A DNA stretch of 36,782 bases from the IMG/VR virus record IMGVR_UViG_3300006969_000007; one strand, written 5' to 3'. Source of the DNA: a virus. How positions within the stretch are numbered: position 1 is the first letter of the stretch; the number at the start of each line of letters is the position of its first letter. Below the pieces are notes generated by a model. It was not told the origin of the DNA. It made no database searches and saw only the letters and a program-made list of their open reading frames with translations. Of the stretch, positions 11,613 through 13,389 are shown piece by piece. A program made the position numbers and the translations under genes.

Positions 11613-12293
11613 TTAAGCTAATGTTGCGCGTAAGTTAATTACCCACAAGTCATTAGTAATTCTTGGAACTTCAGCAAATTTGTAACCAACCGACGCGTTC
11701 AACGCTAATGGTCCATCATAAATCGGTGGTCGATAAATAAAGCTTGCTGAGTAACCGTCTTGCTCAATGCATGCGTATGCTTCCATACCAACACAGAAAA
11801 TGTTGAATACATTGGCACCATTTGAAGATGCATTAGCAGTAAAGCTACCAATAGATGAAATCAAGAATCGAAGGTTACCAATAGCACCCCATTCTGAACG
11901 CAATGCATTCATTGGCGCAGGGTATTGGTTCTTTTGAATGAATCCAGCAACGGCATCAAGATTACCAGTCAATTGTGTTGAACATAATGCAAAGTATGCA
12001 TCACGAACTGGTGCTGTACCGAATTTGTCTTCACCTTCGATGTTGTCCATAATCGTGTACGCATTATTGTTTAATAAAGTACGAACGACAGCATCCACAT
12101 CAGAACGGGTAATTTCAGTCGGATTATCACCATTAACACCACCAACACTATTAATAAAACCAGCAGTTGCTGCTAACATATCACGAGTTAATTGGTCTTC
12201 GGTTTGACGAAGAGATACACCAAGACGAGCAGCACATTCATTAAGAACAGGATCTTGGTTCTGCAGTGTGCATTTAACTGTTACTTTTTTTGA
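11613..12293 (-). CDS. Major capsid protein, exon 2 (226 aa; HK97-fold / N4 gp56-like pattern)
   Basis: The frame is open from 12293. There is no start codon for the first 38 conserved codons (SKKVTVKCTLQNQDPVLNECAARLGVSLRQTEDQLTRD). The rest is the 188-aa track ORF. Confidence 0.75.
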   Translation of the reverse strand, partial: SKKVTVKCTLQNQDPVLNECAARLGVSLRQTEDQLTRDMLAATAGFINSVGGVNGDNPTEITRSDVDAVVRTLLNNNAYTIMDNIEGEDKFGTAPVRDAYFALCSTQLTGNLDAVAGFIQKNQYPAPMNALRSEWGAIGNLRFLISSIGSFTANASSNGANVFNIFCVGMEAYACIEQDGYSASFIYRPPIYDGPLALNASVGYKFAEVPRITNDLWVINLRATLA

Positions 12294-13125
12294 CCAAATA
12301 TTTTCTATTTGGCGGTTGGTCTTGTTATTCCCAACTCCCCTAGTCTCCTAAGGGATCGGACTGTCGCTTCACCTCTCGGTGTCCACTCGCCTCAGTCTCT
12401 CAGCGTGATAATTTAATTTATTTATGGTACGCTATATCCATACATTAAAATGAAGGAAAACTATGCATGACGAATTCTCATACTTATCACAAAATAATTC
12501 AGAGCAACAACTAATAAGAGATTTGAAAATAACAACTATGAGCTATCTTGCTGGAATTGTAGACGGAGAAGGATGCATTGGATTAGAACATCTTTCACCG
12601 ACTAAAAATAGAAAGAAAGATTATTACGTATGCCGACTTACCGTAGTTAACACCAGTGAAGAACTAATGAAGTTATTAGTGTCTAGCCTCAAAGGGCAAT
12701 ATGATACAAGAAAAAAGATAGAAGGCAGAAAGACTTGTTATAGATGGCATGTTTTTGGTAAAGACCTAGAACAAGCTATCTTGGCCTTGTTGCCTTATTT
12801 GCGTATCAAAAAGAAACAAGCGAAATTAGTTCTCGAATATAGAAATACAGTAGCAAGCAATGGTTGGCTCATTAGTGATGATGTACTTGCGCATAGAAAA
12901 ACCATTTGGATTGAATGTAAGAAATTAAATACCATAGGTGGTTAAATTATCTTCGCCCTTGTCGCCCTCGTCTTTACGTTAGGGCTTCCAAGTCAATCAG
13001 AGCGGATTTAAAGCAGGCCATTTACTGCTAAAACCAAGAAATTTCAAAGAACAATCGTCGTTAACCTGCTCGTTCAACTGTACATAGGTCTATAATAAGT
13101 CGAACTCATACGGCACCTACTTTTT
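12294..13125 (-). mobile_element. Group I-like self-splicing intron (832 nt) carrying an antisense LAGLIDADG gene
   Basis: P1 pairs exon/intron UACGGU|A with UGCCGUA (plus-strand 13125-13131 with 13109-13115), with U.G at the cleavage site. The intron ends in G at the tip of a 7-bp hairpin CCAAAUA/UAUUUGG (12294-12312). Further stems are 12315-12335, 12338-12354 and GUUCGAC/GUUGAAC. Joining the exons gives an in-frame 314-aa capsid protein. Confidence 0.65.
12463..12945 (+). CDS. LAGLIDADG homing endonuclease, single-motif (I-CreI-size, 160 aa), antisense to the capsid gene
   Basis: Contains the motif SYLAGIVDGEGCIG. SD AAGGAA lies 6 nt upstream of the ATG. It sits inside the capsid-gene interruption. 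Confidence 0.8.
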   Translation: MHDEFSYLSQNNSEQQLIRDLKITTMSYLAGIVDGEGCIGLEHLSPTKNRKKDYYVCRLTVVNTSEELMKLLVSSLKGQYDTRKKIEGRKTCYRWHVFGKDLEQAILALLPYLRIKKKQAKLVLEYRNTVASNGWLISDDVLAHRKTIWIECKKLNTIGG

Positions 13126-13389
13126 ACCGTAAAAACTAATAACTGCATCAATATCTACCGCAGTAAGATTTTGGGCAGGAGGAGTAATACCAGAATTCCC
13201 TAAAGGAACCATCGCTGTGTTAAGCGGATTGTATCGACGCATACGAAGAGTTGTACCACCATTACGCGGCATATTCTTCTTCATTGCGGGGATCTTATGG
13301 ATCATATTAGGAACTGGTACTGAAAGTAGTTTGTACGAGAAACTTTGCTGCACTGGTGCAGGCAGTGTACTCGTAGTTGTGATAGCCAT
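13126..13389 (-). CDS. Major capsid protein, exon 1 (88 aa, ends ...AVISFYG)
   Basis: AAGGAG lies upstream of the ATG at 13389. The N-terminal pattern is QQSFSYKLL...GGTTLRMRRY...LTAVDIDAVISFYG. The unspliced frame stops 2 codons later (TAG at 13117-13119). Confidence 0.75.

Follow-up and report, generated by a model that had tools for sequence, protein, structure and literature searches.

Two predicted intervening sequences in a viral major capsid gene: a group I intron carrying an antisense LAGLIDADG endonuclease gene and a 36-nt core-less companion

How is a major capsid protein made from a gene that is split around a homing-endonuclease gene (HEG) reading in the opposite direction? The question is raised by a virus sequence of 36,782 nucleotides (nt), IMG/VR record IMGVR_UViG_3300006969_000007 (here referred to as the window), in which two minus-strand open reading frames (ORFs), the two parts of an N4-gp56-type major capsid protein, flank a plus-strand ORF of 160 amino acids (aa). 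A first-pass annotation of the window had proposed that this ORF is a LAGLIDADG endonuclease gene antisense to a single intron joining GGT (13126) to TCA (12293). We compared the locus with related loci obtained through endonuclease homologs, with short-insert DNA patterns in IMG/VR, and with the same pattern in metagenomes. The comparison favors a different arrangement, to which we assign a probability of roughly 60%: two intervening sequences 26 nt apart, namely, a 36-nt mini-intron (element A) that would be spliced by the catalytic core of its neighbor, and a 793-nt group I intron (element B) whose P6 loop (L6) would hold a self-contained antisense nuclease cassette that drives homing. The first-pass annotation is therefore partly supported, being right on the identity and orientation of the endonuclease gene and wrong on the junction and on the novelty of the layout. 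Coordinates of all features are collected in Table 1.

The exon structure can be read from intron-less versions of the capsid gene, which the first-pass annotation had recommended seeking in related phages and which proved abundant (2,604 matches; the best 120 are 314 to 317 aa long and 85 to 91% identical). The two capsid pieces match positions 22-114 and 119-300 of PHROG 1357 on either side of the endonuclease ORF, in agreement with the earlier placement of both the intron and the capsid gene on the minus strand. The segment TYVQLNEQV of the homologs is encoded inside the single intron proposed before, at 13089..13064, in a 26-nt micro-exon that begins 36 nt past exon 1. Joining 13389..13126, 13089..13064, and 12270..11613 gives a 315-aa protein that is 93.7% identical to intron-less homologs, with no gaps. 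In all variants the micro-exon is 26 nt long and encodes TY[VIL]x[LI]NEQV; its variation is mostly synonymous, and it differs from intron-less alleles at synonymous sites only. A capsid made as two separate polypeptides was ruled out, since the downstream part has neither a start codon nor a Shine-Dalgarno (SD) site. An IMG/VR search for an intron-less allele with identical exon sequence found none, and a megablast of the region against 50,697 phage records returned no match.

The 36 nt between exon 1 and the micro-exon are represented by 91 distinct mini-intron variants of 28 to 49 nt, and they are absent from intron-less alleles. The mini-intron cannot be translated through, because its length is divisible by three in only 18 of the 72 variants first analyzed (lengths of 28 to 41 nt being free of any such constraint) and because the copy in the window contains two in-frame UAG stops; amber recoding of these two codons was rejected on the same grounds of length. 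Its guide sequence would form both P1 and P10. P1 is invariant, and in P10 the base that faces the third position of Thr89 makes a Watson-Crick pair in 72 of 72 variants, with all four pair types represented. The last base of the mini-intron, just before Thr89, is G in each of the 25 variants that were not selected for it. Gly88 is encoded by GGU in all HEG-derived loci with a mini-intron and by GGA, GGU, or GGC where the mini-intron is absent. Full-length introns with the same guide sequence occupy the Gly88/Thr89 site in two other loci (L027 and L030), and because they sit at exactly this site, the mini-intron can be understood as a deletion derivative that has lost P3 to P9. Only 15 to 30 nt follow the guide, and these pair with the exon (helix S2, below); since a core of its own is lacking, element A is a group I derivative and not an autonomous member of the class. 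Judged by its site and guide, it is an internal-deletion derivative of the group I intron found at Gly88/Thr89 in other phages. A segment of the L013 mini-intron, UGAUUGACUUUG, was considered as a possible J3/4-P4 remnant and rejected, as it is the S2 strand complementary to the L013 exon sequence CAAAGUCAA.

Element B interrupts codon Val97 after GU. Among 37 distinct variants, helices P3 to P9.2 are 87 to 100% paired, compared with 41 to 75% in controls in which the partner columns were slid, and compensatory pairs occur in P3 (5), P5 (4), P6 (3), P7 (1), P8 (4), P9 (6), and P9.1 (5). P3 to P9 follow the canonical group I order, with a P3/P7 pseudoknot. At the 5' splice site, P1 (AGCAGGU/GCCUGCU) is invariant in the 37 variants, and the 5' exon ends in ...GAGCAGGU. 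At the 3' splice site, the P10 base before the guide covaries with the first base of exon 3 (G:C in 16, A:U in 19, and U:A in 2), and a terminal omega-G (...AAAUG|C at 12271) precedes that base in every variant read, a regularity to be set beside the fact that the later extraction pattern for these variants required a terminal G. P6 (GGCG/CGCU, with its three compensatory pairs) closes L6, which measures 5 to 21 nt in relatives without a HEG; such HEG-less forms of the whole intron are 195 to 298 nt long. These data indicate that element B is a group I intron in codon Val97, with guanosine-dependent self-splicing predicted. Its P1 loop contains a 44-nt extension, UAACGACGAUUGUUCUUUGAAAUUUCUUGGUUUUAGCAGUAAAUG (13019-13062), which is absent from the minimal 195-nt relatives. 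A closely related intron lies 6 nt downstream, after CU of Leu99, in four loci (L043, L058, L065, and L089); these have a different guide (GGCGUG) and no mini-intron, which looks like a site shift through a change of guide. Three further loci (L057, L071, and L075) have Val97-site introns with a different core, no mini-intron, and GGA at Gly88.

Elements A and B appear to be tied together by helix S2, formed between the 3' half of the mini-intron and exon sequence flanking the nearest full intron; the partner of S2 follows the position of that intron in three independent classes. Where the nearest full intron is at Val97, the partner is codons 92-94, and 8.45 of 9 positions are paired on average (62 variants with 34 different exon 9-mers), against 6.33 in a cross-locus control. 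With the intron at Val104, the partner moves to codons 100-102 (23 variants, 8.74/9, all 7 exon 9-mers compensated), and with the intron at Leu116/Ser117 it moves to codons 111-113 (6 variants, 8.67/9). Every complete capsid gene with a mini-intron has a full intron within 87 nt downstream. The dependence is one-way, as Val97 introns without a mini-intron exist.

The endonuclease ORF carries the motif YLAGIVDGEGC and is the size of I-CreI, as had been noted earlier. Its score against Pfam LAGLIDADG_1 (PF00961), 23.1 bits, is exactly the curated cutoff; its match to PHROG 5046 is strong (8e-26), and a phmmer search of the PDB returned I-MsoI (2.9e-10), I-CvuI (3.6e-8), and I-CreI (about 1e-3). 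The structural comparison with I-CreI and I-MsoI that had been recommended gave the same answer. An AlphaFold2 (AF2) model built on 33 relatives reached a mean predicted local distance difference test score (pLDDT) of 94.2 and has the single-domain alpha-beta-beta-alpha-beta-beta-alpha fold of proteins of about 150-170 aa; in Foldseek its top matches were I-CvuI, I-CreI, and I-MsoI (E about 1e-8; template modeling [TM] scores of 0.67 to 0.72). The motif acidic residues D34 and E36 and residue K116, which aligns to the LKLKQKQ segment of I-CreI, are invariant across the 33 relatives. The ORF is intact in 29 relatives at 53 to 81% identity, and the same protein occurs in the same layout on at least 24 independent contigs. 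By motif, profile, and predicted fold, the ORF is a genuine LAGLIDADG homing-endonuclease gene of I-CreI size, intact and conserved. The enzyme family had been described as typical of organellar and archaeal introns, rRNA introns, and inteins; LAGLIDADG genes are in fact common in phages. The label "HNH endonuclease" that LAGLIDADG proteins bear in PHROG 5046 and in many phage GenBank records is a misnomer. In Stenotrophomonas phage StenR_269 (L001), a related LAGLIDADG gene stands free between the scaffolding and major capsid genes and is annotated as an intron homing endonuclease, though no intron is evident there.

The antisense layout recurs throughout this family. Among the 37 distinct Val97 introns, 29 have an intact antisense LAGLIDADG ORF (141 to 185 aa) in L6, 6 have no HEG, 2 have remnants, and none has a sense ORF of the family. 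About 45 of the loci obtained through the endonuclease have a capsid gene that runs opposite to the LAGLIDADG ORF and is split around it, at several different codons. The orientation is not an assembly inversion, because the identical protein sits in the same layout on at least 24 contigs, nor is the layout another kind of assembly artifact, because relatives keep it; the intact relatives also speak against a decayed pseudogene, which the first-pass annotation had named alongside inversion as fatal to its proposal. The SD site that it had assigned to the ORF is present (GAAGGA, 5 nt before the ATG), and most relatives have AAGGA or AGGAG 5 to 9 nt upstream of theirs. A promoter-like element lies at a fixed distance upstream of the ORF, with its -35 abutting the P6 3' strand, and is conserved in position in relatives: T1, A2, and T6 of the -10 are kept in 28 of 30 relatives, at least five of six -10 matches or a TG extension are found in 27 of 30, and a -35 with at least four of six matches is found in 29 of 30. 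A promoter had been placed earlier inside the 3' half of the ribozyme, with GATAAT at 12387-12392 as a -10 candidate; that hexamer is actually at 12407-12412, and the candidate promoter belongs to the P6-loop insert together with the ORF. Thus the ORF visibly stands opposite its intron, and expression signals that would be its own, the SD site and the promoter-like element, are conserved on its strand; plus-strand transcription of the endonuclease is plausible. Both HEG orientations exist in the wider family, since a full Gly88-site intron in a distant high-GC capsid gene (L059, 2390-3080) carries a LAGLIDADG ORF in sense orientation, the 3' end of which runs into the P7/J8/7 core. In another intron (L016), the antisense endonuclease ORF is overlapped by a 178-aa ORF on the sense strand, perhaps a product of chance.

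From these features a mechanism can be proposed. Group I chemistry would remove both intervening sequences: the mini-intron would supply its own substrate helices, and the core of element B would bind the guanosine and catalyze the reaction. During excision of the mini-intron, S2 would take the role of P2, and the P1 hairpin of element B that of P2.1. The mini-intron would probably be spliced first, after which element B would splice itself. Host RNA polymerase would make the plus-strand endonuclease mRNA from its own promoter, and the enzyme would act as a homodimer, cutting intron-less capsid alleles near ...GAGCAGGT|CACACUG... and so driving intron homing. Lying 26 nt from element B, the mini-intron would be copied along by co-conversion, and it may in addition shield the Gly88 site against the nuclease that the full-length intron at this site encodes. 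Whether the 36-nt element deserves to be called a natural core-less group I "satellite" intron, with its own guide, a helper core, a covarying tether, and spread by co-conversion, we regard as an even call.

Other explanations of the locus were weighed against this evidence. A single group I intron of 832 nt (13125..12294), spliced GGU/UCA and counting the 26-nt segment and the block downstream of it as intron, would have a P1 (UACGGU/GCCGUA) and a G at 12294 that fit group I rules, and its junction is in frame in the window. Its product, however, would read FYG-SKKVTVKC-TLQ plus a gap where all homologs have FYG-TYVQLNEQV-TLQ, and the equivalent junction leads out of frame or into stops in relatives (L017, L023, and L053); the intron-less target proposed earlier, ...TTTTACGGT|TCAAAAAAAG..., is thus not a real junction. 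The 26-nt segment, moreover, remains coding and of identical length throughout the variants; it is with this segment, and not with UCA..., that the guide covaries; and UCAnAAAAGUAACAG, a conserved intron tail, recurs in introns inserted elsewhere. We give this explanation almost no credence. Splicing of the 793-nt intron combined with programmed translational bypass of the 36 nt, as in T4 gene 60 or the mitochondrial "byps," is quite unlikely as well. The 50-nt bypass element of gene 60, which has matched GGA codons and may protect its site from a nuclease, reportedly lies next to mobA, and the mini-intron resembles it as a short untranslated insert in a phage gene beside a homing endonuclease; 28 to 49 nt is within the size range of known bypass elements, and the region is strongly structured. 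Against bypass, there are no matched take-off and landing codons (GGU versus UAG, CCG, AUG, AAG, UUG, etc., before ACN) and no stop codon consistently after Gly88. Conservation instead falls on the marks of group I splicing, namely, the U.G pair in P1, P10 covariation, and G as the last base, and the mini-intron descends from a full-length group I intron at this very position.

Removal of the mini-intron by group I chemistry that does not involve the neighbor in cis, either by free introns acting in trans or by a minimal self-splicing element, we consider unlikely. Splicing in vitro is reported for small degenerate group I introns in which only P1, P7, and P10 are left (PMC3160393), excised capsid introns should be abundant late in infection, and one locus (L099) has full introns on both sides of its mini-intron. 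Yet the mini-intron has no P7-like hairpin or guanosine site and is never found without a nearby intron, and S2 ties it, in three classes, to the exon flank of the nearest downstream intron, a link that a pure trans mechanism does not need. The LAGLIDADG protein might also no longer be a nuclease but a splicing maturase or a decaying remnant. LAGLIDADG maturases are known from organellar group I introns, and the degenerate and HEG-less L6 variants fit the usual decay cycle; on the other hand, K116 and the acidic residues of the motif do not vary among 33 relatives, 29 variants diverged to about 35-80% identity have an intact ORF, and no maturase is required, as 195-nt HEG-less introns persist together with the mini-intron. 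We therefore judge loss of nuclease function highly unlikely.

Several observations weigh against splicing of the mini-intron by the core of element B and against homing driven by the antisense cassette. We infer splicing, its order, and the plus-strand transcript from sequence comparison only. Part of the mini-intron variant set was gathered with a pattern requiring GGT, GTGCCGTA, and G-ACN, so that only the HEG-derived subset is unbiased for these features, and some co-occurrence of mini-intron and full intron is expected anyway because the capsid genes of this clade are intron rich. Rfam 15, scanned at gathering and E-value thresholds, returned no group I hit for the window, for 20 related loci, or for the 195-nt HEG-less form, up to an E value of 10; for this reason, the structure of element B was built by hand from alignments and tested by covariation, and its lineage seems to lie outside the curated Rfam models. 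In its core, 4 nt separate P7 from the P3 3' strand, a spacing that is unusual in canonical group I introns. The -10 of the window's own promoter-like element matches the consensus at only three of six positions, and a consensus promoter and terminator scan of 12150-13250 found no promoter on either strand, so that the case for the candidate promoter comes solely from its positional conservation in relatives. TTTATGGTACGCTAT, considered as a phage-wide promoter motif, is not repeated elsewhere in the window above chance. No convincing symmetry was found at the insertion site of element B, where at most 6 of 11 positions are symmetrical at -5 and 2 to 4 at the site itself. Finally, a limited literature search found no instance in nature of two introns being served by a single group I core, no natural core-less group I intron tethered to a helper, no natural counterpart of the engineered spliceozymes described below, and no group I analogue of abbreviated, helper-dependent introns.

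The cassette and the enzyme have several known counterparts. I-CreI, I-CvuI, and I-MsoI are homodimeric enzymes of chloroplast 23S rRNA group I introns, in which their genes are sense oriented. The window endonuclease shares with them a single motif, a length of about 150-170 aa, a TM score of about 0.7, 22 to 28% identity, and the motif acidic residue and conserved lysine, and it differs in being antisense in a phage protein-coding gene and in having a target with no evident palindrome. In T4 td, nrdB, and sunY, the endonuclease ORF is looped out from a peripheral helix (P6 or P9) and has an independent promoter; unlike in the window, these are sense GIY-YIG or HNH ORFs, and there is no satellite mini-intron. 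I-DirII of Didymium iridis belongs to the His-Cys box type and not to the LAGLIDADG type. The antisense LAGLIDADG layout, which had been thought undescribed for phage introns, has a precedent in the capsid intron of mycobacteriophage LittleE, where a LAGLIDADG-like ORF is "on the bottom strand" and splicing was demonstrated by reverse transcription-PCR (Pope et al. 2013, PMC3706429). As in the window, the major capsid gene of LittleE is split by a probable group I intron, with U ending exon 1 and G ending the intron; the phage, the capsid family, and the sequence are unrelated, however, no mini-intron or micro-exon was described, and antisense expression signals were not analyzed there. I-DirII itself is encoded antisense in a group I intron of the ribosomal DNA (rDNA) and has its own promoter (Johansen et al. 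2006, as cited in PMC3073962); it differs from the window in belonging to a eukaryotic nuclear rDNA intron with an RNA polymerase II promoter, a spliceosomal intron, and polyadenylation. Since LittleE and I-DirII precede it, the layout as such is already known.

For the mini-intron, the closest natural comparison is with the degenerate group I introns of 56 to 81 nt in the small-subunit rDNA of Phialophora and a lichen fungus, which retain P7 and are reported to self-splice (Harris & Rogers 2011, PMC3160393). Like the mini-intron, they are strongly reduced yet preserve P1, P10, and pairing with the 3' exon; the mini-intron differs in its length of 28 to 49 nt, in having no P7, in residing in an mRNA, and in always lying near a full intron. 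That a group I core can excise a U-to-G-bounded segment and ligate its flanks is shown by engineered trans-excision-splicing ribozymes and "spliceozymes" (PMC2532722, PMC4094466), and engineered ribozymes of the group I class also remove introns carried by other RNA molecules, in E. coli as well (PMC4094466). By analogy with these, excision of the mini-intron by the neighboring core would be feasible. Spliceozymes are laboratory constructs with the guide in the ribozyme, whereas the mini-intron, in a natural arrangement in cis, carries the guide within the segment to be excised. With regard to T4 gene 60, the mini-intron stands apart in having splice-site features in place of matched codons.

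If the proposed mechanism is correct, a group I intron can survive the loss of its entire catalytic core by relying on that of a neighbor, and the mini-intron lowers the known minimum size of natural group I introns. The locus would also offer a case from nature in which a single ribozyme core serves two substrate helices in set order, with two successive splicing events in one pre-mRNA. The mini-intron would then matter more than the antisense cassette as the more unusual element of the locus, and its deduced mode of splicing appears well supported by covariation. The antisense LAGLIDADG cassette, a layout noted once in a mycobacteriophage, now extends to a large environmental family that is diverse, comprises dozens of variants, and has conserved signals for expression. 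The capsid-intron family is thereby well suited to studying how an intron nuclease comes to be expressed from the strand opposite the strongest late transcript. In practice, automated gene prediction breaks up or shortens these capsid genes, and splice junctions deduced from one sequence alone are wrong, as they were in the first-pass annotation.

Table 1. Features of the interrupted capsid locus in the window (plus-strand numbering; minus-strand features read from high to low coordinates)
Feature	Coordinates	Strand	Details
Capsid exon 1 (Met1-Gly88)	13126..13389	-	Ends ...UAC GGU; ORF and PHROG 1357 match; aligns to residues 1-88 of intron-less homologs
Mini-intron A, 36 nt	13090..13125	-	AAAAAGUAGGUGCCGUAUGAGUUCGACUUAUUAUAG; core-less; begins after U of GGU, ends in G
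Mini-intron A guide sequence	13109..13120	-	P1 and P10. P1: GCCGUA (13114..13109) / exon 1 UACGGU (13131..13126), U.G at splice site. P10: GUAGGU (13120..13115) / micro-exon ACCUAU (13089..13084)
Helix S2, 5' strand GUUCGAC	13099..13105	-	Pairs with micro-exon GUUGAAC 13078..13072, immediately 5' of the intron B P1 strand
Micro-exon, 26 nt	13064..13089	-	ACC UAU GUA CAG UUG AAC GAG CAG GU; Thr89-Gln96 and first two bases of Val97
Group I intron B, 793 nt	12271..13063	-	After GU of codon Val97; ends ...AAAUG, omega-G at 12271
Intron B P1	13070..13064 / 13018..13012	-	AGCAGGU / GCCUGCU, U.G at splice site
Intron B core, 5' half	12954..13005	-	P3 5' strand 13005..13000; P4 12992..12989/12961..12958; P5 12985..12981/12968..12964; P6 5' strand 12957..12954
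P6 loop (L6)	12406..12953	.	Filled wholly by the antisense endonuclease cassette
Intron B core, 3' half	12271..12405	-	P6 3' strand 12405..12402; J6/7; P7 12397..12393/12363..12359; P3 3' strand 12388..12383; P8 12381..12370; J8/7 AAGCGA 12369..12364; P9, P9.1, P9.2; tail UCAAAAAAAGUAACAGUUAAAUG
Intron B helices			P3 CCGCUC/GAGUGG; P4 CUUG/CAAG; P5 GCCCU/AGGGC; P7 GACUG/CAGUC; P8 CACC/GGUG
LAGLIDADG homing-endonuclease gene	12463..12945	+	160 aa, ATG start, TAA stop; single motif, I-CreI/I-CvuI type
Shine-Dalgarno site GAAGGA	12452..12457	+	5 nt before endonuclease ATG
Candidate sigma70-type promoter	12405..12433	+	-35 GTGATA 12405-12410; 17-nt spacer; TG 12425-12426; -10 TACGCT 12428-12433
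Capsid exon 3	11613..12270	-	Third base of Val97, Thr98 to stop; homolog alignment
Predicted spliced junctions			TTTTACGGT|ACCTATGTACAG (GGU/ACC) and GAGCAGGT|CACACTGCAG (GU/CACA)
Predicted capsid peptide from micro-exon region			Contains FYGTYVQLNEQVTLQ
Putative endonuclease target (intron-less allele)			...GTACAGTTGAACGAGCAGGT|CACACTGCAGAACCAAG...; synthetic form GTACAGTTGAACGAGCAGGTCACACTGCAGAACCAAGATCC

Beyond the window, the capsid gene of this clade is an unusually intron-rich phage gene. Individual genes (L011/L343, L358, L375, and others) may have three to five interruptions, many of them with antisense LAGLIDADG ORFs, and interruptions occur at about 15 codons (about 28-31, 70, 79, 88, 97, 99, 104/105, 117, 144, 172-176, 222, 261, 269-274, and 302). 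Within the window, the endonuclease is an isolated plus-strand gene, nearly all structural genes being on the minus strand. Samples in which this phage occurs include JGI 3300006880 and 3300069414. Contigs with the identical endonuclease measure 35.7 to 37.5 kb, and the window is probably a nearly complete podovirus-sized genome.

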